The notes beneath the pieces were generated by a model, which was not told the DNA's origin, made no database searches, and saw only the letters and a list, made by a program, of their open reading frames with translations. A DNA stretch of 61,590 nucleotides, counting the filler. It is 8 parts of 8 records of this genome, joined end to end, with 100 filler letters (N's around TTAATTAATTAA, not from the genome) between each part and the next. Parts side by side here need not be neighbours in the genome. Positions count along the whole stretch, not along the records: positions 20,885 to 34,890 come from SRR2962707_4412; 7 more parts are not named here. One strand, given 5' to 3'. The number at the start of each line of letters is the position of its first letter. Position 1 is the first letter of the stretch. Below are positions 14,269 through 48,819 of this stretch, piece after piece. The translations under genes and the position numbers were made by a program.

Positions 14269-14370
14269 NNNNNNNNNNNNNNNNNNNNNNNNNNNNNNNN
14301 NNNNNNNNNNNNTTAATTAATTAANNNNNNNNNNNNNNNNNNNNNNNNNNNNNNNNNNNNNNNNNNNNTC

Positions 14371-18865: not shown

Positions 18866-20784
18866 CCGCGGGTCTCCTCGGACGGCTCGTTACGGTCGCC
18901 TTTGCCGTTCAACGGCACGCCGGACAGTTTACGAACCACCACGTAGAACAAAGGAATAAAGAAAATGGCCAGGGCGGTGGCGGTGAACATGCCGCCAAAC
19001 ACACTGGTACCGATGGCGTTTCGGGCGCCGGAGCCGGCACCGCTGCTCAGCATCAGTGGTGTCACCCCGAGCATGAACGCCATGGAGGTCATCAGGATCG
19101 GACGCAGCCGCATGCGTGTGGCCTCCAGCGTGGCTTTCCACAACGAGTAGCCCTGGTCCTCCAGATCCTTGGCGAACTCGGCGATCAGAATCGCGTTCTT
19201 CGCCGATAGCCCGATGGTGGTGAGCAGACCAACCTGGAAGAAGACGTCATTTTCCAGGCCCCGGCCCAGCGAGAACAGGACCGCGCCGATCACACCCAGC
19301 GGCACCACCAGCATCACCGCGAACGGAATCGACCAGCTCTCATACAGGGCGGCGAGACACAGGAACACCACGATCAGTGACAGGGCATACAGCGCCGGCG
19401 CCTGGTTGCCGGACTGGCGTTCCTGGTAGGACAGTCCGGTCCATTCGTAGCCGAAGCCCTCCGGCAGATTCGCCGCCAAACCTTCCAGCGCGGTCATGGC
19501 GTCACCGGTACTGAAGCCGGGGCTGGCGTTGCCCTGGATGTTCACCGAGGAGACACCATTGTAGCGTTGCAACTGTTGCGGACCGTACTGCCAGTCGCCG
19601 GTGGCGAAGCTGGAGAAGGGCACCATCTGGTTGTCACTGTTGCGCACGTACCAGGTGCCGATATCCTCCGGCAGCATGCGGTCTTCCGCGTCACCCTGGA
19701 CGTAGACCCGCTTGATCCGTCCGCGATCGAGGAAGTCGTTGACGTAGGTGGAGCCCCAGGCCACCGACATGGTGTTGTTGATGTCGGCGATGGAGACGCC
19801 CATGGATTGCGCTTTCAGGTGATCCACGTCGACCTTGTACTGCGGCGCGTCGGGCAAGCCGTTGTAACGCACTTGTACCATCGACGGATCCTGGTTGGCC
19901 TGACCAAGCAACTGGCCCATGGCCTGGTTGAGCGCGTCATGGCCCAGGCCGGCACGGTCCTGGAGCTGGAAGTTGAAACCGCTGGCGACCCCGAGAGCGG
20001 GGATCGACGGCGGGTTCAAGGCAAAAATGATCGCCTCGCGAATCCCGCCGAAGTAACCCATGGCGCGACCGATGATCTGGTCGATGCCATCGGTGCTGAG
20101 ATCACGATCCTCCCAATCCCGCAGACGGACGAAAGCGATCCCCGAGTTCTGGCCACGACCGGCGAAGCTGAAGCCGGCCACGGTGAAGATGGATTGCACC
20201 GCGTCCTTTTCTTCCTCCAGGAAGTAGTACTCCATCTTCTTCAATACTTCGATGGTCTGCTCCTGGGTGGAACCCACCGGCAGCTGTACTTGCGCCAGCA
20301 TGATGCCCTGGTCCTCTTCCGGCAGGAAGGCGGTGGGCAGGCGGGTGAAGGTGAACGCCAGCACCGCCACCACGGCCACATAGATCAGCAGGTAGCGGCC
20401 ACGGCGGCCCAGGATCTTTTCCACCCTGTTGTGATAGCCATGGCTGGCACGATCGAAGTTGCGGTTGAACCAGCCGAAGAAGCCTTTCTTGTCCTCATGG
20501 GAGGCGTCCTGCTGCTTGAGCATGCTGGCGCACAATGCCGGTGTCAGGATCAGGGCCACCAGTACCGACAACACCATGGCCGAAACGATGGTGATGGAGA
20601 ACTGACGATAGATGGCGCCGGTGGAGCCGGGGAAGAACGCCATGGGAATGAACACCGCGGACAGCACCAGGGCGATACCGACCAGAGCGCCGGTGATCTG
20701 GCCCATGGATTTGCGCGTGGCTTCGCGAGGGGGCAAACCCTCTTCCGCCATCACCCGTTCCACGTTTTCCACCACCACGATGGC
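18862..20784 (-). CDS. AcrB/MexB-family RND efflux transporter (5' truncated)
   Basis: [43 protein letters not shown] and RLRPILMTS. Confidence 0.96.
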
Positions 20785-20884
20785 NNNNNNNNNNNNNNNN
20801 NNNNNNNNNNNNNNNNNNNNNNNNNNNNTTAATTAATTAANNNNNNNNNNNNNNNNNNNNNNNNNNNNNNNNNNNNNNNNNNNN

Positions 20885-20974
20885 CTTTTTGCAGATCTCC
20901 AGGTATTCCTCAAGGGAGTATTCCTCCTCCTGAGTCTGTTCATACCGGTCTTTGAAGTGCTGCAGAATGCTCAT
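20885..20974 (-). CDS. prkA: PrkA/YeaG serine kinase, N-terminal fragment (not in ORF track)
   Basis: Translates as MSILQHFKDRYEQTQEEEYSLEEYLEICKK, matching the typical YeaG/PrkA N-terminus; GAGGGG RBS upstream. Confidence 0.75.
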
Positions 20975-21194
20975 AGATGGCCCCTCGCTTACTCTTGCCT
21001 GTTATAAATTCACGCAATGTCCCCGTTGCTGTTTCGCCGCCTGTCCCGGCGGTGTGTCTGGTTAAGGAATGAATGGGATGGTGTTAAGCAGGTATACGTT
21101 ATCCGGAGGTTTCCGGCCTGCTTAATCTGAGCTTAGTTCAGAGTTCGGGGGTTGGACAGTGAGCAGTCAAATTAGGTTCATTAAATTATGTTAC

Positions 21195-21221
21195 GGGCGG
21201 TAAGCGAGGGACTTACCGCCC
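21195..21221 (-). terminator. Stem-loop downstream of tpm
   Basis: GGGCGGTAAG-N7-CTTACCGCCC perfect inverted repeat just beyond the tpm stop. Confidence 0.6.
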
Positions 21222-21232
21222 ATGAGCGAAGG

Positions 21233-21892
21233 TTATTTCTTGACGAGGGTAAATACGCTCTCTGTGGCGCCGTTTCTCAGGCCCCGGCGTTTGGCAAACG
21301 GGTTGTCACGGGCCATGTCCCGTTTCAGCACCTGGTTGATCTCATAATCCTCACCGTAGAGCCTGAACACTTCGTCGTCGGTAACGTTGAACGGAGGGCC
21401 CTGCATTTCCGAACTGTCGTAATCCAGCGTGATCAGCAGGATTCTGGTTTCGTCCGGAATAATAGCGGTGAGATGATTGACATAGCTCATGCGCATTTCC
21501 GGGGGCAGGGCGATCAGGGCAGCCCGGTCGTACACCAGGCGAATATGTTTGAGGTCGTCCGGCACCAGCTGGAAATAATCCCCACACCAGATCTGCAGGT
21601 CGTCATGGCGGAAGGTGGTAAAGGGTTCGCCCGGGTGAACGCTGGCTTTCTCCTGCGCTTCCTCGAAAAAGTCCTTGCAGGCAACCTCGCTTAACTCCAC
21701 GCCGATAATCGGATGCCCGCGATCGTGCAGCCACCACATGTCATGGGCTTTGCCGCACAGGGGAACGAACACGGCGTCGGTGCCGTTGCCTGCCAGTTCG
21801 GGCCAGTGGTCATGCAGGTACTGATTAACCGTGCCTTCGTGGAAGCCGATTTGGTCTTTTGCCCAGCGTTCGTGCCAGAATTCGTGTTCCAT
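21233..21892 (-). CDS. tpm: Thiopurine S-methyltransferase
   Basis: FWHERWAKDQIGFH, VFVPLCGKAHDM, GVELSE, YDRAALIALP and GPPF. Confidence 0.93.
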   Translation of the reverse strand: MEHEFWHERWAKDQIGFHEGTVNQYLHDHWPELAGNGTDAVFVPLCGKAHDMWWLHDRGHPIIGVELSEVACKDFFEEAQEKASVHPGEPFTTFRHDDLQIWCGDYFQLVPDDLKHIRLVYDRAALIALPPEMRMSYVNHLTAIIPDETRILLITLDYDSSEMQGPPFNVTDDEVFRLYGEDYEINQVLKRDMARDNPFAKRRGLRNGATESVFTLVKK

Positions 21893-21966
21893 GGGTAGCC
21901 TCCCGGAGATTGATCGTTTTCCTCAGTCTACCTTAATCTGTGGGGTCGATGAGTCAGGAGAAAAGT

Positions 21967-22902
21967 ATGAAAGCCGTTTTTCTGGATGCCGCAACGCTGG
22001 GCGAGGATGTGGATCTGAGCCCCATTGAAAACATGACCGGTGGACTGACCTGCCATCCGCGCACCAACCCCGAGCAGGTGATTCAAAGGATTCAGGGCTT
22101 TGATACGGTGCTGGTGAACAAGGTTGTGCTGGGCCGTGAACATTTTGAAGCCTGCCCGGAACTGAAAACCATCGCGGTGGTGGCAACCGGTCTCAATAAC
22201 ATCGATCTGGAGGCGGCCAGGGCCCACGACATCAAGGTAACGAACGTTACCAATTATGGCCGTTCCACCGTGACCCAGCACACCATGGCTCTCATCCTGG
22301 CACTGGCCACCCGGCTGCTGGATTACAACCGGGGTGCCCGCAACGGCCAGTGGGCCAAAAGCGATATGTTCTGCCTGATGGACTACCCGATTATGGAGCT
22401 GGAAGGCAAAACTCTGGGCATTGTCGGCTACGGCGATCTTGGCCAGGGTGTGGCGGAAAGGGCAAAGGCGTTTGGCATGAACATCGTCCTCGGCTGCCGG
22501 CCCGGCCAAGAGCCTGGCGAGGTGGATGGCTACCCGCGAATTCCGCTGGATGAACTGTTGGTGCAGGCTGACGTGCTATCTCTGCACTGCCTGCTGACAG
22601 AAGAAACCCGCAACATGATTGGCGCCCGGGAACTGGGTTTAATGAAGTCGTCGGCACTGCTGATCAACACCAGTAGAGGCGGCTTGGTTGATGAATCGGC
22701 TTTGGCTGACGCCTTGCGGAATGGCGACATTGCCGGTGCAGGCTTTGATGTGTTGACCGAAGAACCTCCCCGCAATGGTAACCCGCTGCTGGCAGACAAT
22801 GTTCCCAATCTGATTCTGACCCCACACTCGGCCTGGGCGAGCCAGGAGGCGCGGCAGCGAATTGTGGAGATTACGGCGCGTAATCTGGCCTCCAGGGCTT
22901 AA
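21967..22902 (+). CDS. D-2-hydroxyacid dehydrogenase (glycerate dehydrogenase/HprA-like)
   Basis: MKAVFLD after a CAGGAG RBS, ATGLNNID, GIVGYGDLG, LINTSRGGLVDE, DVLTEEPP and TPHSAW. Confidence 0.9.
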   Translation: MKAVFLDAATLGEDVDLSPIENMTGGLTCHPRTNPEQVIQRIQGFDTVLVNKVVLGREHFEACPELKTIAVVATGLNNIDLEAARAHDIKVTNVTNYGRSTVTQHTMALILALATRLLDYNRGARNGQWAKSDMFCLMDYPIMELEGKTLGIVGYGDLGQGVAERAKAFGMNIVLGCRPGQEPGEVDGYPRIPLDELLVQADVLSLHCLLTEETRNMIGARELGLMKSSALLINTSRGGLVDESALADALRNGDIAGAGFDVLTEEPPRNGNPLLADNVPNLILTPHSAWASQEARQRIVEITARNLASRA

Positions 22903-23198
22903 GAATTCCCATAGCTGCAGAACCTACATATTGCACATCAAAAAATTACCTTTTTTTACCTTTCAACAGAGGAAAACCAGAACTCTCTAGGCTATCTTTC
23001 CGCCTAACAGAAAGTTAATGGCGAATGGATACAGCGTTATCGCCGTGATGACCGCCCAGCGGTCTAACTTCATCAGGGAGTTCTGATGACCATCTTCGCG
23101 TTTAGTTGCCTTTTCAATTCGTACCAGAAAGAAACCCCACCAAAGACGATTGCAAGCGGACTTTCCGTCCCAGTGCCCCTGCCTGCTGAGTAACTGAC

Positions 23199-26100
23199 AT
23201 GAAATTGAAGCAAGCCATGAATGTATGTGCCGTTATTGGCACGTATGCCACTATGTTGTTTTCAGGCAATCTCTGGGCGAGTCAAACATCGCTTACCCAC
23301 CATGTAATTGGTGAATGGGATAACTCTGCCGCCGCTGCTCAGGCAGATCTGGGCTCGGAGCTGGTCATAATCGATCATGATGTGCCTGACAGTGACATTC
23401 TGGTTGGCGCTTTGCCCCCCCAGACCGCCGTGATTGCTCTTTCTAGTGCAAACACAATCGAAGAACTCAATGAAATTTTGGGTTCTTATCATGGTTTAAA
23501 AGCTATTTACCTGGTTTCGCATGGACAAAGTGGGGAGTTTTCGCTGCTGGGTCAACGAATTAACTTTGAGAGTCTGAGTCAGGCACCTGCTTTGGCTAAT
23601 GCGCTTGGGGGGGCCTTGGTAACTGGTGGAGACATTTTGCTGTATGGCTGCAGCATTGGACAGGGACAGCAGGGGGCAGACTTTATTGAGCTGTTTTCCG
23701 CAGCCAGTGGTGCTGATGTTGCGGCCTCTGTAAACGACACGGGAAGCTTTGCCAAAGGCGGTGACTGGGTTCTGGAATACAGTTCCGGCGTGGTTGAGGG
23801 GGGCACTCCCTTTGAGGGGTCTGCGCTCCGGGAATACTCATCGTTATTGGCGTCTGCTGTGTTGAATTACGCGGCGCAGCCAAGCACCAACAACGTAGCT
23901 GATTACGCACTGTCAGCATCGCTTACTGCTAATACCAATTTTACAATCGATTGGGGCAATGGAGATCAAGGCCCGGATACTTACACAAGTAGTCTGCTCC
24001 GGGTTTTCGGTGGTTTCGCGATTGCTCCTATCCAAGGCGGCACCCTCGGCGGCACCGATGGTATGGTTTTCAATGCGTCGACCATGGGTCTGCAGTTAAC
24101 TGCCAATAACAGTTTTTCTCTTGATGTTTTGAATCTTTATCGTCGGGCAGATACTTCGCCAACGAGGACGGAAGATTTCACGATTAAGGGGTTCAAGAAC
24201 GGAGCCCAAATCGTTCAGGACACGTTGACCTGGGTCCAGGCTCTTCAAAACAATACGACTGAAGTTTTCACGCGTGGGGTTGGCACCTGGGATGCAAACC
24301 CAGCCTGGGATAATATCGACAAGTTGGTTATCAGTTGGCCTGATCCGAGTTCTTTTGAAAATGCGTCCGCATATCAGGAAATTGCGGTCGTCAGTATTTC
24401 GGTTTCTGACCCCGTTTCCGGCAATAATGCTCCGACTGACATCTCCCTCGATTCGAGTACCATCACTCAAGGTGCCACCGGCCCTGGCGCGGTAGTTGGT
24501 AATCTCGCAACCTCCGATGCAGACACGGGAGATACACACACCTATTCCCTGGTAACGAATGGCACATCGGGAAGCGGTTCGTGCGGGGCGACTGGAGACG
24601 ACGAGAACGCCAGTTTCCAGGTGGACAACGCCAATGATCAGCTCGAAACCGCGGGTAGCCTCACGGCCGGAACCTATAACGTTTGCGTTCAAACTGATGA
24701 CGGCACCGATAGTTACCAAAAGAGTTTGTCGATATCGGTGGTAGTTGACTCGGATGGCAGCTTGATACCCGCTGGCGGGGTCATCGAGCCTGTCGGCCTG
24801 GACACTACCATCGATACGGTTGGCGAAGCGGTCGACCTATTCGATTTCACCCTCTCCGATGGCGGCACAAACGATGGTCTGCCGATGGCGGTTTCACAGG
24901 TGGTGGTGAACGTTTCCGGCACCAGTACAGATACCGAAAGGGCCAAGATAACCTGGCGGCTCAACGGCCCGGATGCCAGCAATGTGACCGGGACCTACAG
25001 CGCTGCTGCGGATACGATTACGTTTCCCGGATTGAGCATATCGGTTGCGGACGGGGCCAGCGAAACCTATACCATCAATGCCTATTACAATGACAACAGA
25101 GGACTGACCGAGGACAACACAATCATCCTGTCTGTGGATGGCGACACCGATCTGACGGTGGAATCCTCGGGTACCCAGATGGGGGGCACGTCTTCAGTAC
25201 ATAATGGAACAGGTACGGCCATTGATGTGGTGGCCACGCAACTGGCCTTTGTCACTCAGCCTGCAGGCTCGACCTCTGGCAGTGCTCTGAGCACTCAGCC
25301 GGTGGTGGCTGCGCGGGATGCCTTCGGTAATACCGATGTGGATTTCAGTGAAACGATAACGCTCACGGAATCCAGCGCGGGTGCCCTTTCCAATAGCGCT
25401 GCGTCATCCGTTTCCGGTGTGGCTACATTCACCGGTGTTATCTATACGGCTACATCGGATCAGGAAAGCTTCACCCTGATCGCCAATGATCAGGATAGCG
25501 TAGGTTCCGATCTGGTACCGGTAAACGCTAATGCGGTCACCTCTGATGTCGTAGCCACCAAACTCCTGTTCGATACACAGCCTTCACCCGCTTCGGTGAC
25601 CAGTGGCAGTTCAACTGCCTTCACTACGGTGCCGGTTATTCGGGCGGTTGATGCCAACGACATCACCGATACTGGCTATTCTACGAACATTATGATTGCT
25701 GAAATCAATGGCGCCGGCAGTGCCACGATGACCGGCACCGGCGACCTTGATGGCGATGGCTCAACCGTCACACTGGCACCTGGCGTTGGCGTGGCAACGT
25801 TCACCGGTTTGCAGATTACCTATACCGCCTCCGGAGCGTCGAACGAAAACTTCAACCTGCAGGCCTCCTCGGGCGGCCTGTCCAGCGCAACCAGTACTCA
25901 GCTGACCGCGAGCGTTACGCCGACGATCACCAGTGTGAGTGTGCCAGCCAATGCGACCTATGTGGCTGGGCAGAATCTGGACGTTACGGTCAATACCAGC
26001 GGAGCCATCACTGTTAACACCGCTGGTGGTACGCCGCGGATCGTGCTGGATATCGGCGGATCTACCGCCTACGCGAACTATCTCTCCGGTAGTGGCACCA

Positions 26101-29100
26101 ATAGCCTGGCTTTCCGCTACACCCTGCAGTCGGGTGATCTGGATACGGACGGTATTGGCATTGCAACGCTGGACACCAATGGCGGAACGTTGCAGAACAG
26201 TTCCGGGAATGACCTGGATACCACATTGAATGCCGTCGGCAGTACCGCAGCTATTCTTGTGGACGCTGTCAACCCGACTGTAAGCAGTGTCACCGTGCCC
26301 TCTGCTGGTCGGTATGTTGCGGGAAACAATCTCGATTTTACCCTCAACGTCAGTGAGAACCTCACCCTCAACACCGGTGGCGGCGTTCCACGTATTGCGT
26401 TGACGCTTGGGTCTACCACCCGCTATGCCAGTTACATCAGTGGTAGCGGCACCGCATCACTTGTTTTCCGATATGTCGTCCAGTCAGGAGACGAAGATAC
26501 CGATGGTGTGACGGTCGCTGCGGCCGTTGATTCGAATGGCGGAACGCTGAAGGATGCTGCCGGTAATGATCTCGTTACGACGCTGAACGCAGTAGGCGAC
26601 ACCAGCGCCATTCTGGTTGATACCGTTGCGCCAGCCGGCCACAGCGTGAATTTCGATGATAGTACGCTCAACGCTGCTGAAGCCGCATCGGCCAGTTTCA
26701 CCTTCATTGCAGCCGAGGTGGGCACGGATTACAGCTATACCATTTCCAGCACTGGAGGCGGTACTCCCGTGACCGGGTCGGGAACGGTTGCGACGGCGTC
26801 AGATCAGATAACCGGTGTGGATCTCAGTGGTCTGGCGGACGGCACGCTGACGCTTTCAGTAACGCTGACCGATACTGCCGGCAACAGCGCCGTCGCTGTG
26901 ACGGGTACTGCGACACTCGATGTAACCGCGGCTACAGTCACCCTGAGTACAGTGGCGCCCGCGGTTACCAATGCTGCCTTCGAGGTTGCCATTGTCTTTA
27001 GCGAAGCCGTCGATGGTTTCATGGTGGGGGATGTTACGGCGGTCAATGCCGCTTTGAGCGGATTCACTGGCTCCGGTGCAAACTATTCCGTTACCGTGAC
27101 GCCTTCTAATGATGGTGTTGTGACGGTTGATGTTGCCTCTGCAGTCGCTCAGGATGCCGCCGGCAATAGTAACGTTGCTGCAACTCAGCTCAGTCGCGTT
27201 TTCGACGGTACAGCCCCGGCCCCGGTCATAAGTACCGATGCGAACGCTCTGACCAATGGGCCGATCAATCTGACGATCAATTTCGGTGAAGTGGTCAGTG
27301 GCTTTGTATCAGGCGACCTGTCAGTCACCAATGGCAACGTGACGGCCTTTACCGACCAGGGCGGTGGCGTGTTTGACCTGACGGTTGAAGCGGCTGCCGA
27401 TGGCAATGTTGTGCTCTCTCTACCGGCTGCGGTTGCTGACGACGAAGCGGGTAATGCCAGTATCGCAGCCACGCCACTGACCATCGCCTTTGACGGTTCC
27501 GGCCCGACATTACAGTCATCTTCGCCTTCAGCGGGAGCCAGCGCCGTGTCGTACCAGAGTGGCTTGACGCTGACCTTTGATGAGCCGGTATTCGCGGTCT
27601 CCGGTGACCTGGTGTTGCAGGATGCGACTGAGGGTGTAGAGCACACTCGCATCGCCATCGACGGGGCTGGTGTGGTGATTGTCGGTGCGCAAGTAGAGGT
27701 TACTCTCGAAAAAACGCTGGTACCCACTCATGACTACTATGTCACCGTTGCCTCCGGAAGTCTGGAAGACGAAGCAGGTAATGCCTGGGGGGGAATACAG
27801 AACGATACCACGCTGAGCTTTACCGTCGGCAACGAGGCACCGCAGGCCAACAATGACACCGCTACGATCTCGCAGGATCAGTCGGTTGCCATTGATCTGC
27901 TTGCCAACGATACCGATCTGGAAGGTGATTTGAGCCCGGCGAGCGTGCGCATGACGACAGCACCTTTCCATGGGCAGGTGACCATCAACACGGGAACAGG
28001 CGTGGCTATCTACACGCCGGAGCCTGGTTTTAATGGTAGCGACAGCTTTGCCTATGTGGTCGAGGATCAGTACCGCGGCCAATCGGCTGCGGCGACGGTA
28101 GCAGTCAATGTTGTTGCAGAAGTGCGGGCACCGGTTGCCAGGGCGGATGTGGCAAATGGAGTGCCGGGTGACATCGTGGTGCTTGATCTGTTGGCCAATG
28201 ACAGCCCGGGTATCGGTGGGGTGAGTCTTGATAACGTCACTCTGACGCTTATTAACCGGCCGCTGAATGGCACTGCGGAAATCGCGAACGGCGAACTGAC
28301 CTACGTATCGGAAGAGGGCTTCGGCGGGATTGAGCAACTGCGCTATTCTCTGACGGATCCAGACGGTCGTGTCTCTAATGTGGCGGATGTCTGGATCAAC
28401 CTGTCTGACAGTAACCAGCCTCCGGTCACGCTGGACGATTCCGCTGAAACCCCAGCAGGTACCACATTGACCCTGGATATCCTGGCTAACGACAGTGATT
28501 CCGAAGGGGCTCTGGATCCTTCCTCGGTCAGTCTGATGAGCTTGCCTGCCCATGGCAGTGTCAACCTGGATGAGGTGACTGGCCGACTGACCTATGCGCC
28601 GGACGCGGGGTTCCGGGGCGAAGATCGACTTACCTACGTGGTCCGTGATGCTGAGGGGCTGGTTTCTCCGGTGGCTGAAGTGATCCTGGCGGTGGGGACG
28701 AACGAGGCGCCGGTGGCACGTGATGACCAGGTCCGTCTGGTCGGAGATAAGGTGCACGCGATCAGCGTCCTGGGTAACGATGGTAATGGCAGCGCATCGC
28801 TCGTGTCCTCTTCCCTGCGGGTTGTGAACACCCCCCTTCAGGGCAGTGTTGCTGTTGATGCCGCTTTGGGCCTGTTGCTGTATACCCCGGATGCAGGCTT
28901 CACCGGGACCGATGAACTCACCTACACCGTGGAGGACGATCAGGGACGGGTTTCTGCCCCGGCAATCGTGCGGATCGGCTCCGGAATCGTGAACAACGTG
29001 CCCGTAGCCAATCCGGATCGGTTCGTTCTGGAGGAGGACAGCTCACTGACGCTTGATCTGCTGACCAATGATCAGGATCTCGAAGCCGGCCTTAGCCGTT

Positions 29101-31376
29101 TTGACATTGTTCTGATTGACACCCCGCGTCATGGCTCGGTCAGTGTGGAGAGCGACGGAACGCTGATCTATTCACCGGACCAACACGTCTTCGGTGAAGA
29201 TCGATTGACCTACCGCGTATCCGATGCTCAGGGTGGCGAATCCCGTGTGGTCAGCGCCCGCCTGCGGATTACACCTAAAGCCGATGTACCGTTGATCAGC
29301 GGTACCCCCACCCGTACGGTCACGGCAGAAGAAGCCTATCGCTTTACTCCGGTGGTGAAGGATATAGACGGCAATCCGTTGCAGTTCAGCATTCTCAACA
29401 AGCCGATATGGGCGACGTTTGATGACACCACGGGCCGCCTTTCAGGTACGCCAGGCGTTGCCCAGGTGGGGGTGACAGAAGGTATTGTGATCTCCGTAAG
29501 CAATGGGGATGAGAGTGCCAGTTTGCCGGCATTCGATTTGCTGGTGGCCGATAATTCTGGCGGCGATCAGGCGACGGGAGGTGGTGTAACAAGTCCAGCA
29601 GGGCCCGGAGCGGAAGAAGATTCTCCGGTTTACAGGGTTAACCCTGACGATCCGCAGTTGAGCCTGCCGGAAAGCAGCTGGCCGGCGACGGAAGGCGAGC
29701 CTCCCCATTCGGTTTACCGCGTCAGTTTCATCGATGCGAATGGGGATGGCCGCACGATCAGCGTAACGCAAGGCGCTAACGTGGCACCGCCGCTCAGCTC
29801 TGGTCCGAATGCGAATGGCGAGCTGGGACTGGAATTCAGTCAGGCCGATGGCAGTCGTCAAACGGTCAGTATCGGCCCTGACGGTGAGACGGAGCTCCTT
29901 GTCTTCCGCCAGGCCGGAGACGCGTCGCCGGTCAGTCGATTGACCAGTCGCGCCCCGCAACTGGATTCTGAGGTTCGCGAAGACGGAAGGGTCGTCAGTG
30001 GCACTGTCATCGAACGCACCGCTGGCGGTTTCGCCAAAGTGGATATCACCCAGTCACCGAACGCCGGTCTCACTGTTGCCATGACGATCGTGGCTGTTGA
30101 CGGTACTGAGAGCGATCCCACGCTGTTCCAGTTTGATCTGGTTCCGGCCGATGTCGATCTGTCAGCCGATGGGGTTGTGACCCTACAGGGACAAACGGTC
30201 AATGGTGCCGGTGATGCGGTGGTGGTCAGCGTGCGTCTTGATGCCCGCGGAGGAATGACGGTCCTGTCCAGTGTCGATGATGGCGTATCAGACATCAGTA
30301 GTGGCATTGTGACGGAGAGCCCGGGTGCCATTGGTGGGCTCGATGCCGCAGGGAATGTGTTGGTGACGCCCAGCCTGAATGCGCCTGCGAATCTGGCGGT
30401 CACTGTCGACAACCTTGGTACCCTTGAGTTCGATGAAAACGGCACGACCGTGACAGAACCCAACGGGGGCAAGGTGGTGCTCGACGCCTCGGGTGTCAGC
30501 CAGGTAACTCTGAATGATGACCCGGATGGTAACGGGCTTCGCCGTGCGGCTGAAGTCTCTCGCCCCGGTGCCGGAGTGCAATCCCTGGCACGACTCGAGG
30601 TGACGGACGTTGAAAGCGGCAATGCCGGCGTCTTCGTAGAGAATGCGGCTGATGGTGATGGCTTTGCAGTTCAGCGGAACCTCGGTGATCGAACCCTCAC
30701 AAGTCAGATTCGCCTGGATGGAAGCGCGCAACATCGCCTTGCCGTTGACGGGCAGCCTGCCAATGAAGTCATCGCCCTGTTGCCTCAGACCCTCTCCATT
30801 TTCTTCGATGACCGGGCGGTGACCGTTGCCGATCAGAACGACGCAACGCTCTACGTGGAGGCTCTGCTCAGTGGGGAAATGCGGCACGAAGTTGTCCGTG
30901 CAGGGAACAGCACGCGTGCGATCAGTCGTTTGCCAGGCTCCCGGACGCAGATGGAGCAGGGTGAGAATGGCGCTCAGGTGATCACAGAAGGCGCCAGTGA
31001 GGGGCGGCAGATCACGGTGATTGCCCGAGAGGATGGCTCTGCTCGTCATCAACTGGTAAACCGGCTAGGTCATCGGACGCGGGCGGAGATTGCGATTCCC
31101 GGAACCGCGACCGATATTGCGGAAGATGGAGGATTGATCAGTCGGGTGCGCTTGGGGAGCATTGATCTCTGTGCCTGGGTGGAGACCTTCGGCAATGGTG
31201 AGACCTCGACCGGATTCGGACGCTATGACGCCGCTCAGGGGAGCTGTGTGGATATTACCAGCCCAACGAACCTGGATAGTGCGTTTGAGTCCGGCAATGC
31301 GGTTTCTGTCGAAGAGAGCGATGGATACTACTCAATCACAGTTGAGGCGGACGTTACCCGCCCAATCCGATTCTGA
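23199..31376 (+). CDS. Giant (2725 aa) exported surface protein/adhesin: signal peptide, DUF4347, cadherin-like and many bacterial Ig-like repeats, He_PIG-type Ig domain, unassigned ~580-aa C-terminal region
   Basis: DUF4347 motifs (IYLVSHG, DILLYGC, GADVAASVNDTG…GGDWVLE), NNAPTDISL cadherin-like unit, D.AGN.S Ig units, five NxAPxAxxD…YTP..GF.G.D…Y units, and PLISGTP…GRLSGTP. Confidence 0.88.
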   Translation: MKLKQAMNVCAVIGTYATMLFSGNLWASQTSLTHHVIGEWDNSAAAAQADLGSELVIIDHDVPDSDILVGALPPQTAVIALSSANTIEELNEILGSYHGLKAIYLVSHGQSGEFSLLGQRINFESLSQAPALANALGGALVTGGDILLYGCSIGQGQQGADFIELFSAASGADVAASVNDTGSFAKGGDWVLEYSSGVVEGGTPFEGSALREYSSLLASAVLNYAAQPSTNNVADYALSASLTANTNFTIDWGNGDQGPDTYTSSLLRVFGGFAIAPIQGGTLGGTDGMVFNASTMGLQLTANNSFSLDVLNLYRRADTSPTRTEDFTIKGFKNGAQIVQDTLTWVQALQNNTTEVFTRGVGTWDANPAWDNIDKLVISWPDPSSFENASAYQEIAVVSISVSDPVSGNNAPTDISLDSSTITQGATGPGAVVGNLATSDADTGDTHTYSLVTNGTSGSGSCGATGDDENASFQVDNANDQLETAGSLTAGTYNVCVQTDDGTDSYQKSLSISVVVDSDGSLIPAGGVIEPVGLDTTIDTVGEAVDLFDFTLSDGGTNDGLPMAVSQVVVNVSGTSTDTERAKITWRLNGPDASNVTGTYSAAADTITFPGLSISVADGASETYTINAYYNDNRGLTEDNTIILSVDGDTDLTVESSGTQMGGTSSVHNGTGTAIDVVATQLAFVTQPAGSTSGSALSTQPVVAARDAFGNTDVDFSETITLTESSAGALSNSAASSVSGVATFTGVIYTATSDQESFTLIANDQDSVGSDLVPVNANAVTSDVVATKLLFDTQPSPASVTSGSSTAFTTVPVIRAVDANDITDTGYSTNIMIAEINGAGSATMTGTGDLDGDGSTVTLAPGVGVATFTGLQITYTASGASNENFNLQASSGGLSSATSTQLTASVTPTITSVSVPANATYVAGQNLDVTVNTSGAITVNTAGGTPRIVLDIGGSTAYANYLSGSGTNSLAFRYTLQSGDLDTDGIGIATLDTNGGTLQNSSGNDLDTTLNAVGSTAAILVDAVNPTVSSVTVPSAGRYVAGNNLDFTLNVSENLTLNTGGGVPRIALTLGSTTRYASYISGSGTASLVFRYVVQSGDEDTDGVTVAAAVDSNGGTLKDAAGNDLVTTLNAVGDTSAILVDTVAPAGHSVNFDDSTLNAAEAASASFTFIAAEVGTDYSYTISSTGGGTPVTGSGTVATASDQITGVDLSGLADGTLTLSVTLTDTAGNSAVAVTGTATLDVTAATVTLSTVAPAVTNAAFEVAIVFSEAVDGFMVGDVTAVNAALSGFTGSGANYSVTVTPSNDGVVTVDVASAVAQDAAGNSNVAATQLSRVFDGTAPAPVISTDANALTNGPINLTINFGEVVSGFVSGDLSVTNGNVTAFTDQGGGVFDLTVEAAADGNVVLSLPAAVADDEAGNASIAATPLTIAFDGSGPTLQSSSPSAGASAVSYQSGLTLTFDEPVFAVSGDLVLQDATEGVEHTRIAIDGAGVVIVGAQVEVTLEKTLVPTHDYYVTVASGSLEDEAGNAWGGIQNDTTLSFTVGNEAPQANNDTATISQDQSVAIDLLANDTDLEGDLSPASVRMTTAPFHGQVTINTGTGVAIYTPEPGFNGSDSFAYVVEDQYRGQSAAATVAVNVVAEVRAPVARADVANGVPGDIVVLDLLANDSPGIGGVSLDNVTLTLINRPLNGTAEIANGELTYVSEEGFGGIEQLRYSLTDPDGRVSNVADVWINLSDSNQPPVTLDDSAETPAGTTLTLDILANDSDSEGALDPSSVSLMSLPAHGSVNLDEVTGRLTYAPDAGFRGEDRLTYVVRDAEGLVSPVAEVILAVGTNEAPVARDDQVRLVGDKVHAISVLGNDGNGSASLVSSSLRVVNTPLQGSVAVDAALGLLLYTPDAGFTGTDELTYTVEDDQGRVSAPAIVRIGSGIVNNVPVANPDRFVLEEDSSLTLDLLTNDQDLEAGLSRFDIVLIDTPRHGSVSVESDGTLIYSPDQHVFGEDRLTYRVSDAQGGESRVVSARLRITPKADVPLISGTPTRTVTAEEAYRFTPVVKDIDGNPLQFSILNKPIWATFDDTTGRLSGTPGVAQVGVTEGIVISVSNGDESASLPAFDLLVADNSGGDQATGGGVTSPAGPGAEEDSPVYRVNPDDPQLSLPESSWPATEGEPPHSVYRVSFIDANGDGRTISVTQGANVAPPLSSGPNANGELGLEFSQADGSRQTVSIGPDGETELLVFRQAGDASPVSRLTSRAPQLDSEVREDGRVVSGTVIERTAGGFAKVDITQSPNAGLTVAMTIVAVDGTESDPTLFQFDLVPADVDLSADGVVTLQGQTVNGAGDAVVVSVRLDARGGMTVLSSVDDGVSDISSGIVTESPGAIGGLDAAGNVLVTPSLNAPANLAVTVDNLGTLEFDENGTTVTEPNGGKVVLDASGVSQVTLNDDPDGNGLRRAAEVSRPGAGVQSLARLEVTDVESGNAGVFVENAADGDGFAVQRNLGDRTLTSQIRLDGSAQHRLAVDGQPANEVIALLPQTLSIFFDDRAVTVADQNDATLYVEALLSGEMRHEVVRAGNSTRAISRLPGSRTQMEQGENGAQVITEGASEGRQITVIAREDGSARHQLVNRLGHRTRAEIAIPGTATDIAEDGGLISRVRLGSIDLCAWVETFGNGETSTGFGRYDAAQGSCVDITSPTNLDSAFESGNAVSVEESDGYYSITVEADVTRPIRF
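25920..26633 (+). repeat. Two tandem ~118-aa Ig-like repeats inside the adhesin
   Basis: PTITSVSVPANATY…SGSGTNSLAFRYTLQSGDLDTDG…ILVD and PTVSSVTVPSAGRY…SGSGTASLVFRYVVQSGDEDTDG…ILVD. Confidence 0.9.
27831..29280 (+). repeat. Five tandem ~97-aa cadherin-like/Big_9 repeats inside the adhesin
   Basis: Units begin NEAPQANND, VRAPVARAD, NQPPVTLDD, NEAPVARDD and NNVPVANPD. Each has L.ND, a P..G strand and Y.V/L.D..G..S. Confidence 0.88.
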
Positions 31377-31387
31377 GGTAGAGAATT

Positions 31388-31690
31388 ATGCAGATACAGA
31401 CAGTTAGGCGTTCTCTCGGATTGGCAGTGTTGGGCAGTGTCTTTGCCCTGCTGGCTGCTTGCGGTGGTGACTACTCCGCTAAAGAAAAGTCATCAGGCGC
31501 GGATAACGGACCGGTTGTCGTTTCTCTGGTAACAGGAAACGAAACGGAGGTGTTCTCCGGCGATGAGGTGGTAGATCCGGAGGGGGACGCCCGTATAAGG
31601 GTCCGGCATGAATCCGTGAATGATCGTAAATTCGTAACCCTGTTGTCGGGTTCCGCGAATCTGGTCCGGCATTCGGGAGGAGAAGGTTGA
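31388..31690 (+). CDS. Small (100 aa) lipoprotein of unknown function
   Basis: Basic n-region, hydrophobic h-region and lipobox LAA-C25-GG. Starts 11 nt after the adhesin stop; beta-rich mature part. Confidence 0.8.
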   Translation: MQIQTVRRSLGLAVLGSVFALLAACGGDYSAKEKSSGADNGPVVVSLVTGNETEVFSGDEVVDPEGDARIRVRHESVNDRKFVTLLSGSANLVRHSGGEG

Positions 31691-32277
31691 TGAAACTCTC
31701 TCCCTCCTGCCGTCTGGCGTTTTTTATCTTGCCTCTGGTAACCACGCCCTGTGTTGCAGAGGATAACTGGTGGGTCAGTGCCCACATTGCTGCCACCCAT
31801 TCCGATAGCCAGCTGACGGGCCCAGGGAGCGCGACCCTGAGGCTGGAAGAGGGTGCCGCGGTGCAGCCTGGATTCGCCATTTCCCGGGGTAGTCAGTTCG
31901 CCGGTCACCATATTCGTCTGGCGGCTCAGGCTGGTTATGCGAGTTGGGCGGAGGCCAGCGGGGCTCTGTTGGTGCTTGGGGGCGACTATCTCTGGAATGA
32001 CCGTCTCGGATCCTCTGGTGGGGTATACCTCGGGCCTCGCCTCGGAGTGATGGAATTTGACGAGAACATCACTGACCAATCGGATACGACCGCAGTGTAC
32101 GGCTACGAGTTCGGATTTGACCAACCCTTCTACGATGGCGGCATGACGCTGGGGCTGTTCTATCAGCAACTGTTTGTCGACGTGAACAACCGGGCGTCGG
32201 CGTCAACCGGCAGCGCATTGGGAGTCAGTGTTGACCGGCTTGATAGCCTGGGTATCCGTTTAAGCTGGCGGCTTTAG
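31690..32277 (+). CDS. Small outer-membrane beta-barrel protein (about 8 strands, OmpA-TM/Ail/OmpW-like)
   Basis: Signal peptide, alternating strands (GGDYLW, VYLGPRLG, YGYEFGF, LGLFYQ) and C-terminal LGIRLSWRL. TGATG overlap with the lipoprotein stop. Confidence 0.78.
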   Translation: MKLSPSCRLAFFILPLVTTPCVAEDNWWVSAHIAATHSDSQLTGPGSATLRLEEGAAVQPGFAISRGSQFAGHHIRLAAQAGYASWAEASGALLVLGGDYLWNDRLGSSGGVYLGPRLGVMEFDENITDQSDTTAVYGYEFGFDQPFYDGGMTLGLFYQQLFVDVNNRASASTGSALGVSVDRLDSLGIRLSWRL

Positions 32278-32328
32278 TCGCTAGCCGCTACCATTTGGGG
32301 GTCAAAACCCGTAAAGACAGGATGTTAC

Positions 32329-33684
32329 GTGGCTTCCACCCAGATGAAAGAGCGGCTCCAGGCTGCTGAAGACTGGATACTGTCCAATTCCAACCCACCG
32401 CAGACCTGGCCCTGGACCTGGCTGTATAAATCCGGGCGCTCGGCTTATGCCCTGATCCGCGATGTGATCAGTGGTCAGCTGACACTGCACGCCATGAGCC
32501 TGGTTTACACCACGTTGCTCAGCATTGTGCCGTTGCTCGCCCTGAGCTTTTCCGTGCTGAAAGCGCTGGGTGTGCACCAGCGCATGGAGCCATTCCTGTA
32601 CCAGTTCTTCCAGCCGATGGGCCCACAGGGTGTGGAGGTGGCTGAGCGAATCCTGGGCTTTGTCGATAATATGAAAGTCGGTGTGTTGGGCTCGGTGGGT
32701 CTGGCCTTGTTGGTGTACACCGTCATTTCCCTGGTTCAGAAAATCGAGCGCTCGTTCAACATGATCTGGCGGGTGCCGGAAATGCGCTCCATGGCGCAGC
32801 GTTTCAGTAACTATCTGAGCGTCATCATGGTCGGCCCCTTGTTGATGGTTTCGGCTATCGGGGTAACCGCCACCATATTCTCTTCAGAAATCGCGCAGAA
32901 TCTTATGGCCATCGAGCCGTTTGGTTCGTTGATTGTCCTTGCCAGTCGATTTACACCATTTTTCCTGGTGGTGGGCGCGTTCACCTTTGTTTACATCTTT
33001 ATCCCTAACACCCGGGTGAAGCTGCGCTACGCGTTTATCGCCGGGCTGGTGGCCGGCGTTTCCTGGCAGGCTGGCGGCATGCTGTTTGCCTCGTTCGTGG
33101 CCGGCTCGGCCAAGTATGCGGCCATCTACTCCGGTTTTGCGGTCGGTATCATTCTGCTGATCTGGACGTATCTGAACTGGATGATCCTGCTGCTTGGCGC
33201 CAGTCTGGCTTTCTATCTGCAAAACCCGGGGGCCGTAGCCAAGCGCCGGAATGTCCAGCTGGCGCCGGAATTGCAGGAGCGGGTAGGGCTTGCCCTGATG
33301 TGGATGGTGGCCAAGCCGTTCAGCCGCGGTGAACCGGCGCCTCAGCAGGAGTCTCTGGAGCAGCAGTTGCGGATTCCCGGCGAAGTCACCCGCAAGATCA
33401 GCGACAAGCTGATCCGCGCCGGATTGCTGAATCTGGCGGGGCGAGATGGCGATCAGCTGGTTCCAGGGCGAACACTGGATCTGATTACGGTCGGCAGTGT
33501 GCTGCGGGCTGTGCGCAAGGACGAAGACCGGGTGGTGGATCGTCTTCCAGCCGGTGCCATGCCGCGGGAGTTGACCGATCTGGCGCCCACCAGCGATGAC
33601 GTCAGTTTTGCCAGCCTGCTGAATGCCGATATACCGCCCGGGGCGGACACTGTCAAAGCACCGGCGTCAGGTCCGAACCTGTGA
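32329..33684 (+). CDS. yihY: YihY/virulence factor BrkB-family membrane protein with C-terminal extension
   Basis: AMSLVYTTLLSIVPLLA, IERSFNMIWRV, YIFIPNTRV and YAAIYSGFA…WMILLLGA. Confidence 0.88.
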   Translation: MASTQMKERLQAAEDWILSNSNPPQTWPWTWLYKSGRSAYALIRDVISGQLTLHAMSLVYTTLLSIVPLLALSFSVLKALGVHQRMEPFLYQFFQPMGPQGVEVAERILGFVDNMKVGVLGSVGLALLVYTVISLVQKIERSFNMIWRVPEMRSMAQRFSNYLSVIMVGPLLMVSAIGVTATIFSSEIAQNLMAIEPFGSLIVLASRFTPFFLVVGAFTFVYIFIPNTRVKLRYAFIAGLVAGVSWQAGGMLFASFVAGSAKYAAIYSGFAVGIILLIWTYLNWMILLLGASLAFYLQNPGAVAKRRNVQLAPELQERVGLALMWMVAKPFSRGEPAPQQESLEQQLRIPGEVTRKISDKLIRAGLLNLAGRDGDQLVPGRTLDLITVGSVLRAVRKDEDRVVDRLPAGAMPRELTDLAPTSDDVSFASLLNADIPPGADTVKAPASGPNL

Positions 33685-34716
33685 ACTTTTGCCTTCCTGG
33701 AGCATTCTGAGCAATACCGTACGTACCCTGCCCAGTTGCTCCGGGGACAGGTGCACAATGCGAATCAGATTCTCTTCTGACAGGTTTCTCTGGCGGGCAT
33801 GGCGCAGCACCTCCCGGGTGCCCAGAAGCAGGCCGTCGGTCAGTGCCGAGTGCGCCTGCCGCGGCGCCGGTCGTTCTGCCGATAACAGCCAGGCATGGTA
33901 TTTGGGCGGCAGAGTCCAGACATTCGCCAGTAGCTGACAAGTGGCCCACTGATAGCGGGTCAGGGCCAATCTCAGCAACGCCGGCTCCGGTTCACTGCCA
34001 GAGCCCCTGGTGCGGTAGATACGCCCCAGTTCCCTGCGAATGGTGATGTACGCCAATGCTGGCAGCAGGCCAACCATGAAGTGGGCGCTGGTGTCGTCCC
34101 GGTGAATCTTGGCAATCATTTCCGCCGCTCGGGCGCAGGTCAGGCCCCAGCGCCAGGATCGTTGGGCGAAAAGTGCCTCGCGGCTGTTTCGGGCCGCCAT
34201 CATAGGCCGCATAACCGCCGCAGCAATCACGTTCCGGATGCCGTCCACACCCAGCACGAACACCGCCTGGTCAACGGATTCTATGACGTGTTCACTCGGG
34301 CGGAAGTAGGGGCTGTTGGCCACCTGCAGCAACTGGTCGGTCAGTGACGGGTCACTCAGAATGATGCGGGTAAGCTCTTTGCGTTCGGTGGCTTCATTGG
34401 ACAGTGCTCGCATCAGCATGGGTAAGCTGCCAGGCTTCCTGGGCAGTTCTTCCATTTCGTTCATTTGCAGGCGCCGCTCGAGCTCGGCCAGTTCCTTTTC
34501 GCCACTATCTGTGCCGGCACGAAGTCGCGCGGGTTCCACATCAAGCAGCCAGGTGAACAGGTGGTCTTCCAGTTGGCCAACAATGTCGCCTTCATCGTTG
34601 CTATTGCCGGGCTGGCTGGTGCTGGAAGGATTAAAAAGCCGGGTTTCGGAGGCAGCCTGTGGGACGGATTGAGTGCTGTTGAACAGGCCTGATATCCAGG
34701 AAAAAAAGCCCGGCAT
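33667..34716 (-). CDS. HDOD-domain protein
   Basis: ELPRKP…ILSDPSLTDQLLQVANSPYF…SVDQAVFVLGVDGIRN…WTLP. GGAGG RBS before MPGFF. Confidence 0.85.
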   Translation of the reverse strand: MPGFFSWISGLFNSTQSVPQAASETRLFNPSSTSQPGNSNDEGDIVGQLEDHLFTWLLDVEPARLRAGTDSGEKELAELERRLQMNEMEELPRKPGSLPMLMRALSNEATERKELTRIILSDPSLTDQLLQVANSPYFRPSEHVIESVDQAVFVLGVDGIRNVIAAAVMRPMMAARNSREALFAQRSWRWGLTCARAAEMIAKIHRDDTSAHFMVGLLPALAYITIRRELGRIYRTRGSGSEPEPALLRLALTRYQWATCQLLANVWTLPPKYHAWLLSAERPAPRQAHSALTDGLLLGTREVLRHARQRNLSEENLIRIVHLSPEQLGRVRTVLLRMLQEGKSSQVRT

Positions 34717-34806
34717 CCCTTGCCTCCGCATAGCGTGTATAAAGAATGGACTGGTTATCTGGCCAGTATAGTAGCGTAATGCAACCCTGCACAGCCCTGA
34801 CAACGA

Positions 34807-34890
34807 TCAGAAAAAGGACTCGCCAAAGACAAAGACCAGTTGGCACACACCGGCCACCAGACCCAGGAAGGCGCCCACCAGGATCAGTTT
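34807..34890 (-). CDS. C-terminal fragment of a membrane protein, DUF445-like
   Basis: KLILVGAFLGLVAGVCQLVFVFGESFF-stop resembles the DUF445 C-terminal helix. Confidence 0.5.
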   Translation of the reverse strand, partial: KLILVGAFLGLVAGVCQLVFVFGESFF

Positions 34891-35330
34891 NNNNNNNNNN
34901 NNNNNNNNNNNNNNNNNNNNNNNNNNNNNNNNNNTTAATTAATTAANNNNNNNNNNNNNNNNNNNNNNNNNNNNNNNNNNNNNNNNNNNNCCCCCCCGCT
35001 CCCCCCCCCCCCCCCCCCCCTTGTGTTCTGTTGCTTGTGCTGTGTTGTGTATGTATTCTGTGTGTGTGGTTGTGTGTGTATTTGCTGCTGCTCGTGCTCT
35101 GCTGTATTTGTGCGCGTGGCGTTGCTCTGCCCGCTGTGCCCGCTGTGCGTCTGTCTCTGTGTGTATGTACTGTGTTTCTTTCTTGGTGTGGCGCTGCATA
35201 AGCGAAGAGATTCTGGCGCTTTTATGTGCCGAACCACTTGTTCTGGTTTCTCTTCGTGTTCGTCGTCCAGACTGTGAACTAATCTGCTGTATTGCACGCC
35301 AACTGTGATGGGCGCTCTTCGTCCTTATTA

Positions 35331-40700: not shown

Positions 40701-40880
40701 GTGATTCTGTTCGTTTAGCTTGGCAGCTGGAACCGCTGGGCGTTCACGCTTGCCGTGGGATGCAAATCCTCGACCTCTACCCCGGCCTCTGCCCCTTCCA
40801 GAGCTGTTGCCCCGCCCTCGCTCACGGCCACGGCCATGCGTACGTTCTGAGTGGTGAGGGGTAGCGCTGTCGTCTGACAT
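37734..40880 (-). CDS. DEAD-box RNA helicase, DDX3/DED1-like, two exons
   Basis: Q motif GYQQPTPVQ, AETGSGKT, PTRELA, TPGRL, DEADRMLDLGF, SAT, ARGLD and HRIGRTGRAG. Intron 38747-38610 joins ANQK to VPKWF (DDX3-type ANQxVPxW), so ORF 37734-38648 is the last exon. Confidence 0.9.
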
Positions 40881-40999
40881 TGCAAAAACGAAGTCAATCG
40901 CTGTGTTCCAACCAAATGAACCTACCCGCACACACACGCACGCTCGCTCACGCACACTCGCTGTGTCCCAACCCACTCGCAACGTGAATGGCGAGTGAG

Positions 41000-41152
41000 C
41001 ACACACACACGCACGCACGCACACGCACNNNNNNNNNNNNNNNNNNNNNNNNNNNNNNNNNNNNNNNNNNNNTTAATTAATTAANNNNNNNNNNNNNNNN
41101 NNNNNNNNNNNNNNNNNNNNNNNNNNNNACACACACACACACACACACACAC
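41000..41152. repeat. (CA)n/(CACG)n microsatellites on both sides of a contig spacer
   Basis: Directly visible at 41000-41028 and 41129-41152. Confidence 0.9.
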
Positions 41153-48647: not shown

Positions 48648-48819
48648 NNNNNNNNNNNNNNNNNNNNNNNNNNNNNNNNNNNNNNNNNNNNTTAATTAAT
48701 TAANNNNNNNNNNNNNNNNNNNNNNNNNNNNNNNNNNNNNNNNNNNNTTTTTTTTTTTTTTTTTTTTTTTATTGGCTCGTTGAATACCGGTAATTGATTC
48801 ACTGAATTAATTATCGATC

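Follow-up and report, generated by a model that had tools for sequence, protein, structure and literature searches.

The window analysed here is a stretch of DNA of 61,590 nucleotides made of eight unrelated contig pieces joined by seven N44-TTAATTAATTAA-N44 spacers, and our subject is a candidate surface-display cassette on one of these pieces, SRR2962707_4412 (20885-34890, between the N runs at 20785-20884 and 34891-34990; the homology of three same-species contigs, L001-L003, also ends at 34890). The cassette consists of three genes on the plus strand: a giant adhesin gene (23199-31376; 2725 aa, 278 kDa, isoelectric point 4.05), a lipoprotein gene (31388-31690; 100 aa) and a gene for a predicted accessory outer-membrane beta-barrel of eight strands (31690-32277; 195 aa from the ATG at 31690, with an in-frame TTG at 31687). 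The adhesin and lipoprotein genes are separated by 11 nt (31377-31387), and the lipoprotein stop overlaps the barrel start in the sequence TGATG (31688-31692). A GAGG lies 5' of the lipoprotein ATG and a GGAGGAG Shine-Dalgarno sequence stands ~7 nt 5' of the barrel ATG. The original prediction for this DNA had described three co-directional, coupled genes with N-terminal export signals on all three products, and both descriptions hold, as the open reading frames (ORFs), the gap and the overlap can be read directly and the leaders and lipobox are visible by eye in the protein sequences, which is how export signals were judged throughout. In three studies, RNA libraries yielded contigs that include the cassette region, and those covering 30600-32071 and 31358-32393 span gene junctions; this is weak evidence, since DNA carry-over is possible and the contigs do not prove a single transcript. 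Promoter and terminator scans returned nothing exceeding the shuffled expectation.

The adhesin opens with a Sec-type signal peptide (23199-23282, plus strand; aa 1-28) that is basic and then hydrophobic (MKLKQAMNVCAVIGTYATMLFSGNLWA followed by SQ, with cleavage guessed after LWA). Most homologues with a complete N-terminus carry a leader of this type, which was not seen in the partial gene calls P0013, P0018 and P0022 or in the over-extended ORF of locus L005. A DUF4347 head domain follows (23361-23849, plus strand; aa 55-217, Pfam E 8e-40), and further along lie the stalk repeats (26925-29288, plus strand), in which Pfam and NCBIfam recognise two Big_12 domains, one Big_5 and five Big_9/cadherin-like (tandem-95) domains. 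The head is the variable part of the protein and probably its distal end: contigs L001-L003 are 98-98.6% identical to the stretch over 24821-34890 and have no match to 22891-24820, which comprises the promoter region and the first ~540 codons, but carry unrelated sequence there instead. Among homologues the head is DUF4347, Laminin_G_3 or of no recognised type, and the block formed by Big_12, Big_5, Big_9 and the C-terminal domain is conserved in most; the adhesin of genome G523 gave no Big_9 match at E ≤ 1e-5. The number of stalk repeats also varies between strains (24821-26930 compared with L001 and L002), as two alignment blocks that overlap by ~210 nt in the stretch are separated by ~690 nt in L002. 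The DUF4347 head contains a ...VSHGQSG... and ...LYGCSIG... pair whose spacing may resemble that of the His/Cys dyad of caspase-like (clan CD) peptidases.

Signatures of known secretion and retention routes were sought in the adhesin. The GG.G.D pattern of RTX nonapeptides has 0 matches across the 2725 aa, and Pfam gives no HemolysinCabind match. Autotransporter, two-partner secretion (TPS), type IX secretion system C-terminal (T9SS-CTD) and sorting-tag domains had no match in Pfam or NCBIfam, and PF03797, PF05860 and ShlB/POTRA were likewise unmatched. The same databases identified no Por_Secre_tail, PEP-CTERM or GlyGly-CTERM tail, and a hydrophobic C-terminal helix is absent, the maximum 19-residue hydropathy within the last 150 aa being 0.86. 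The protein is therefore as it was first described, lacking RTX repeats, an autotransporter barrel, TPS/TpsB features and a PEP-CTERM/GlyGly-CTERM tail. The accompanying claim that no type I secretion system (T1SS) genes are adjacent stands for the 14-kb piece, on which no ABC transporter, membrane-fusion or TolC-like gene was found, and for nothing wider that might be read from it, because the spacers bound the piece and DNA beyond them has no physical linkage to the cassette. At related loci, the Pfam-scanned flanking ORFs of L004, L006 and L007 (±10 kb, in part) and of the G523 locus held no secretion genes, and those of L004, L006, L007 and L023, scanned with the exception of some small ORFs, held no T1SS genes.

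The most distinctive part of the adhesin is its conserved C-terminal domain (29526-31373, plus strand; aa 2110-2725). This domain is all-beta, with ~48 short strands, and is very hydrophilic and poor in aromatic residues (6 Tyr and 2 Trp in 616 aa). An AlphaFold2 (AF2) model of the last 616 aa, made with 7 sequences, reached a predicted local distance difference test score (pLDDT) of 85 and a predicted template-modelling score of 0.80, with strands of 3-10 residues, mostly 5-8. An hhalign self-alignment (offset ~55-58 residues, E 3.7e-8) shows tandem repeats of ~56 aa within the domain (29703-31145, plus strand), which are followed by a terminal cap (31170-31373, plus strand) with a Cys pair (C2658 and C2683), the motif CAWVETFGNGETxTGFG and the end TRP[IL]RF-COOH. 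The Cys pair is conserved in 7/7 aligned domains, which fits folding outside the cytoplasm, and the TRP[IL]RF end is kept in most homologues, one Marinobacter protein having TRVITF. With residues 2080-2725 as the query, 13 giant proteins were matched at full coverage with 41-100% identity, and a 14th match covers just 6%. Four of the homologues share a C-terminal domain 98-100% identical to that of the stretch; three of these begin with other sequence and are 2749-2942 aa long, and P0014, at 2725 aa, has the N-terminus of the stretch as well.

This domain is without recognisable relatives in the resources searched. The last ~650 aa of the adhesin have no Pfam match and the domain has no NCBIfam relative, and a PDB sequence search with its profile found none. 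Comparing the model with the PDB by Foldseek gave beta-propellers at template-modelling (TM) scores of 0.09-0.16 and a root-mean-square deviation (rmsd) of ~20 Å, values that are not meaningful. A wide VIA-align search placed LPD-3 at the top (Z 5.7, rmsd 26 Å), with further matches at Z ~3 to the long beta-sheet proteins TamAB, LptA, OspA and SAS-4 TCP, and assigned no fold; the ESM Atlas held no usable match.

The lipoprotein encoded directly downstream has a lipobox, LLAA-C25 (Cys codon 31460-31462), a linker rich in Gly, Ser and Asp, and a ~50-aa domain closed by the family signature VTLLSGSA(E/N)LxR, so that its mature form is ~75 aa. Its family comprises 47 clusters at E ≤ 0.01. In 20/20 members aligned, the lipobox-type Cys is present together with the Gly/Ser-rich linker and the signature VTLLSGSAELxRG, and by the lipobox criterion the protein is a predicted signal peptidase II substrate and hence predicted to be lipidated. 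Asp at +2 is the inner-membrane retention signal of Escherichia coli. Just 2/20 members have Asp at this position, and the other 18 have an outer-membrane-type context. The members scanned against Pfam (P0002, P0071 and P0084) had no match, a PDB sequence search with the 20-member profile A5 found similarity to signal peptides only, the ESM Atlas gave only leads below 0.9, and a profile comparison between the lipoprotein and the C-terminal domain was not significant (E 0.18-0.64, a range that includes the cargo comparisons described below). The family is sparsely distributed. At the class level it was found in 1/400 genomes, the query's own, with one genome unscored, and at the order level in 6/401 at E ≤ 0.001, of which G003 and G207 are convincing; the matches in G181, G183, G217 and G360 (21-22 bits, E 4.5e-4 to 8e-4) lie in the leader region (profile positions ~7-68) and were set aside, uninspected, as leader-like. 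One homologue, P0071 (E 1.1e-11), bears the label of a Campylobacterota metagenome-assembled genome; this one lipoprotein is all that speaks for the similar trios that the original prediction suggested for that phylum, and a link to it is at most possible.

The pattern of co-occurrence ties the C-terminal domain to the lipoprotein. When 191 Marinobacter genomes were searched with a profile of each (A2 for the C-terminal domain, A4 for the lipoprotein), both were found in the same 6 genomes, in one copy each and side by side, with 4 to ~20 nt between adhesin and lipoprotein genes. By reciprocal genome counts the two families form an obligate pair. With each species represented by one genome, the C-terminal-domain profile picked out five Marinobacter loci, and in 5/5 the lipoprotein gene lies 3' of the adhesin gene (4-14 nt in L004-L007, ~10 nt in L008). 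The pair is present on the stretch and on three near-identical metagenome contigs, and lipoprotein and adhesin protein clusters are tied, indirectly, by base-exact sizes of their longest contigs (48130, 46653 and 19716 bp). Across all 11 genomes examined the lipoprotein adjoins a Sec-exported cargo, and the genes remain neighbours in four or more distinct chromosomal contexts.

In contrast, the barrel is found in 2/191 Marinobacter genomes, both times directly after the lipoprotein inside the cassette, and thus in 2/6 Marinobacter cassettes; a barrel homologue comes next in 2/5 of loci L004-L008. Whole-genome searches did not find it in 8/10 lipoprotein-bearing genomes (G001, G002, G004, G523, G207, G978, G980 and G981), with G003 and G005 as positive controls and G979 left out. 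Wherever its context could be seen the barrel lies inside the cassette, and barrel and lipoprotein clusters are tied, again indirectly, by exact longest-contig sizes (2431, 8165, 4741, 19716 and 2573 bp). The barrel is therefore a cassette-specific accessory and not an obligate partner. The expectation that all three genes would co-occur is accordingly borne out for the C-terminal domain and lipoprotein and fails for the barrel, and of the dedicated partner pair proposed at the outset the lipoprotein is specific to the C-terminal domain, while the barrel is present in 2/10 lipoprotein-bearing genomes.

The barrel protein has a hydrophobic leader ending, by eye, in CVA before ED, and its own C-terminus is SWRL. 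Six homologues among 5.8 billion proteins supplied the alignment for an AF2 model with 8 strands, the best of five at pLDDT 72 and the other four at 28-36. The top Foldseek matches in the PDB were NspA (TM 0.55/0.68), OmpA, Ail, OmpW and OmpX. The protein itself, P0003, has no Pfam match; a distant relative, P0029, passes PF13505 (OMP_b-brl), scoring 33.5 bits where the cut-off is 28.7. Among 1.84 billion representatives the barrel profile matched 12 proteins at E ≤ 0.001, of which 4 reached E ≤ 1e-10, which makes this a very small family. A barrel pattern scan of genome contigs gave 39 pattern stretches, of which 0 were confirmed. Among the distant profile matches, P0031 (663 aa) has its barrel-like part at the C-terminus (residues 534-662) behind an N-terminal region weakly like DUF3344, and could represent a version of the family in which passenger and barrel are fused; another, P0035, carries Sel1 repeats.

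A second type of cargo was identified through the lipoprotein. In genome G207 a lipoprotein homologue (hhalign probability 97.4%, E 1.1e-11) is encoded 31 nt upstream of a gene for a 903-aa protein with a Sec signal, a reprolysin-like metalloprotease domain, and PKD and Big_9 domains. The lipoprotein is present in 5/28 genomes of the family to which G207 belongs, each time directly upstream (18-53 nt) of an orthologous protein of 903-1000 aa. The gene order thus differs, as the lipoprotein gene follows the adhesin gene and precedes the protease gene. Both cargo classes carry a Sec signal and Big_9 domains, have two Cys close to the end and finish in [I/L]-x-Phe; the protease cargos end in G[IL]xF, and all 18 cargo C-termini read (13 of adhesin type and 5 of proteases) end in [I/L]-x-F. 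A collinear Cys...P...[IL]xF pattern was also noted by eye between the cargos and was kept as a lead only, the profile comparison being not significant (E 0.18-0.64). The notion of swappable passengers is thus upheld on two counts, by heads that differ over C-terminal domains 98-100% identical and by a metalloprotease cargo in another family.

What, then, could this module do? We favour, at a probability of about 0.45, a cargo-lipoprotein docking module of the outer membrane whose cargo crosses that membrane through a general pathway, for instance type II secretion. Two genes, with a third in some lineages, would keep a large Sec substrate at the outer membrane. The adhesin would be exported by Sec with a C-terminal module of about nine 56-aa beta repeats and a disulphide cap ending in [I/L]-x-Phe; the Lol pathway would deliver the small lipoprotein to the outer membrane, where its 50-residue domain (VTLLSGSAELxRG) would bind the cap. 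The C-terminal domain would then form the cell-proximal stalk and the variable head (DUF4347, LamG or other) the distal end, which would face the ligand. The barrel, whose gene is translationally coupled to that of the lipoprotein, would be an optional part that stabilises or exposes the lipoprotein anchor and would not be a translocon, and passage across the outer membrane would use a general pathway, most likely type II secretion.

We infer the physical binding, outer-membrane location, orientation and secretion route of the adhesin module from several lines of evidence. The strict adjacency of lipoprotein and cargo over chromosomal contexts, gene orders and cargo types indicates a physical partnership with the C-terminal end of the cargo. 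A docking role, with the C-terminal domain proximal, is suggested because the C-terminus is conserved and the N-terminus variable, because the lipobox context is of the outer-membrane type in 18/20 members, because an outer-membrane barrel is co-translated in some lineages and because no other anchor is visible. GspD exceeds its curated cut-off in 10/10 carrier genomes; its presence is necessary for a type II route, yet it does not discriminate carriers from non-carriers.

A number of points weigh against this docking module. The failure of GspD to separate the two groups of genomes is one, and at 278 kDa the adhesin would be larger than type II substrates usually are. The C-terminal domain has a fold that matches nothing clearly, and its shape consequently gives no functional guidance, and the barrel model is just moderately confident, with one of five at pLDDT 72. 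The binding of lipoprotein to adhesin, the face of the outer membrane on which the lipoprotein lies and the surface exposure of the adhesin are all features that we infer, and it is doubtful on mechanical grounds that a domain of 50 residues could by itself anchor a giant adhesin under load. The C-termini of adhesins and proteases are not significantly similar by hhalign (E 0.18), and their shared [I/L]-x-F end could reflect convergence or chance. Complex prediction for the C-terminal domain (616 aa) with the mature lipoprotein scored 0.00 in both runs, in which alignments were unused and the fold of the partner was uncertain, and this outcome speaks on neither side.

The alternative that survives best, although we judge it somewhat unlikely, is that the lipoprotein serves as a membrane-tethered periplasmic chaperone or pilot of a type II substrate, in the manner of Lif/LipB, CpaB or a pilotin, binding the C-terminus transiently and being absent from the final surface structure. 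All cargos have a Sec signal and no dedicated transporter, and GspD is present in every carrier. CpaA is reportedly termed adamalysin-like in the title of a paper, which would put it in the peptidase clan of the reprolysin-like cargo, so that an adamalysin/reprolysin-type protease is among the cargos in both cases. The likeness extends to gene layout. According to Harding et al. 2016, type II chaperones are membrane-anchored and encoded beside effectors that include a protease, 22-132 bp away; CpaB serves the protease CpaA, and the LipA/LipB-Lif and CpaA/CpaB pairs share with the present module a Sec cargo without a dedicated transporter and a membrane-tethered partner within tens of bases in either gene order (PMC4713064). 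The partner here differs, however: in place of an N-terminal transmembrane helix it has a lipobox, whose +2 residue is of the outer-membrane type in most members (18/20), it is probably located in the outer membrane, and with 75 mature residues, ~50 of them folded, it falls far short of Lif and CpaB in size. It bears no similarity to Lif or SRPBCC proteins, had no match in Pfam and resembles PDB entries in its signal peptide only, and the known helpers are inner-membrane proteins of other folds. The main cargo here is a 278-kDa adhesin that needs an anchor, with no other visible, and the chaperone explanation leaves the co-translated outer-membrane barrel of several lineages unaccounted for.

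The secretin pilotins PulS/OutS, AspS and MxiM are small outer-membrane lipoproteins, mostly helical. They resemble the present lipoprotein in that its proposed target is the very C-terminal end of a far larger neighbour exported by Sec, and differ in that the partner here is no secretin, and the lipoprotein, all-beta by sequence pattern, resembles them neither in sequence nor in profile and has no Pfam match.

An undescribed form of cargo-swappable, non-covalent display is an unlikely but more far-reaching possibility. Here the [I/L]-x-Phe cap would sit in the 50-residue domain, which would be threaded through or clamped by the private barrel, leaving lipid anchor and cargo outside, in an arrangement like that of RcsF-OmpA; the module would move between lineages and possibly phyla (Gammaproteobacteria and Campylobacterota) and display adhesins or proteases. 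RcsF, a small lipoprotein with a long disordered linker, is joined to the outer-membrane barrels OmpA and OmpC, and PulA and InvL are said to be type II-dependent surface lipoproteins. These proteins provide precedents for a lipoprotein-barrel combination and for surface lipoproteins, with the differences that no homology to them was found and that the lipoprotein of the cassette would carry a separate giant protein.

It is quite improbable that the lipoprotein is an inhibitor or immunity protein directed in the periplasm against an activity of the cap or the metalloprotease, as in AprA/AprI or polymorphic toxin-immunity pairs. Toxin-immunity pairs are usually laid out in this way, with a small gene adjoining that of the large secreted partner; proteases make up one cargo class, and the weak VIA structural matches include immunity proteins (Z 3.6-4.7). 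However, conservation runs opposite to that of polymorphic toxins: CdiA/Rhs proteins have a conserved N-terminal body and a hypervariable C-terminal toxin, whereas here the C-terminus is conserved and the N-terminus variable. The adhesin C-terminus has no recognisable enzyme domain, and a single lipoprotein domain serves two unrelated cargo types.

The original prediction had cast the lipoprotein and the eight-stranded barrel as a dedicated machine moving the adhesin across the outer membrane through its C-terminal domain, and this we consider highly improbable. The tight coupling of the three genes, the cassette as the sole context seen for the barrel and the absence of another dedicated transporter close by all speak for such a machine. 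The barrel is nevertheless missing from 4/6 Marinobacter cassettes and was not found in 8/10 lipoprotein-bearing genomes searched whole with the positive control working, and its fold class is that of NspA, OmpA and OmpX. Eight-stranded barrels of this type are not known to have a channel wide enough for a polypeptide, and a barrel of this size that most carriers do without cannot be a translocon. That the cassette genes are functionally unrelated and merely travel together on a small island is scarcely credible: the cassette is rare and patchy (6/191 Marinobacter genomes), as a mobile island would be, but its adjacency is kept in at least four chromosomal contexts, with both gene orders and two cargo types, and its spacing is of the translational-coupling type.

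Relative to known systems, it is already established that a secreted protein can have a small membrane-tethered partner encoded next to it, and what is new, as judged from sequence and structure databases, are three candidate families (the C-terminal domain of ~620 aa, the lipoprotein and the small barrel) without a Pfam, NCBIfam or PDB relative. A literature search that did not extend to supplements found no description of the C-terminal domain, the lipoprotein or the cassette. Like the RTX adhesins LapA, MpIBP and SiiE, the adhesin would be a giant Ig/cadherin-like fibre with a conserved cell-proximal retention end and a variable distal end. In contrast to these proteins it has the opposite polarity, with the conserved end at the C-terminus, and carries a Sec signal, no RTX repeats and no nearby T1SS genes. 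In the part of the report accessible to us, BapP of Pseudoalteromonas tunicata is a Big_9-rich, Ca-type adhesin with an N-terminal propeller, encoded beside T1SS/MacAB-like genes; it too is a marine gammaproteobacterial adhesin with a predicted Sec signal and an open outer-membrane route, and differs in that this part mentions neither a lipoprotein nor a barrel as partner, nor a C-terminal domain of the present kind (PMC12153261). The docking module would address how giant Ig-repeat adhesins with a Sec signal cross and stay on the outer membrane, a question also posed, in the same part of that report, for BapP (PMC12153261). If the cap and the 50-residue lipoprotein domain do suffice for tethering, they would constitute a compact display tag, and adhesin annotation would gain a missing category. 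Two carriers are in culture, Marinobacter azerbaijanicus TBZ242 and M. lacisalsi CECT 7297, and as the barrel is present in the former and lacking in the latter, the anchoring hypothesis is directly testable.

The chromosomal surroundings of the cassette vary between loci. On its own piece it is flanked by a 2-hydroxyacid dehydrogenase gene on one side and yihY/HDOD genes on the other, and Marinobacter contexts include TPMT and 2-hydroxyacid dehydrogenase genes on one side and yihY and HDOD genes on the other. A sulfotransferase-family gene lies directly upstream of the adhesin gene in 2/6 Marinobacter carriers (L007 750-1607 and L023 14193-15086), and its product may modify the adhesin or a glycan ligand. 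Downstream of the cassette in L004 (11618-15780) are genes for a PAS histidine kinase and a GGDEF/EAL response regulator, and the other carriers have an HDOD-domain gene near the cassette; these are possible regulators of the adhesin of the cyclic di-GMP type.

The spacers of the window lie at 7780-7879, 14269-14368, 20785-20884, 34891-34990, 41029-41128, 48648-48747 and 53843-53942, and the pieces other than that of the cassette come from clearly different sources. At 17408-20778 on the minus strand lie a gene for an OEP outer-membrane factor and, after it, one for an AcrB-type pump that is truncated by the end of its piece (the Pfam profile match begins at position 405 of 1021); because this fragment is on another piece, it is no evidence of a linked efflux system or T1SS. 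Long intron-free ORFs with domains of eukaryotic type were identified at 8120-9790, 10617-11504, 11851-14163, 38652-41024, 41431-43401 and 48820-49920. Chimerism or horizontal transfer was considered for them and ruled out, as these ORFs belong to other joined pieces. The pieces that carry them have a GC content of 50-57%, and their domains are Ser/Thr/Tyr protein kinases, PH with RhoGAP, a DEAD-box helicase, Myb and PH. They may stem from a eukaryote, from a giant virus or from a bacterium that encodes eukaryote-like proteins. The first 7.7 kb of the window (1-7.7 kb) carry low-GC bacterial sugar-metabolism genes.

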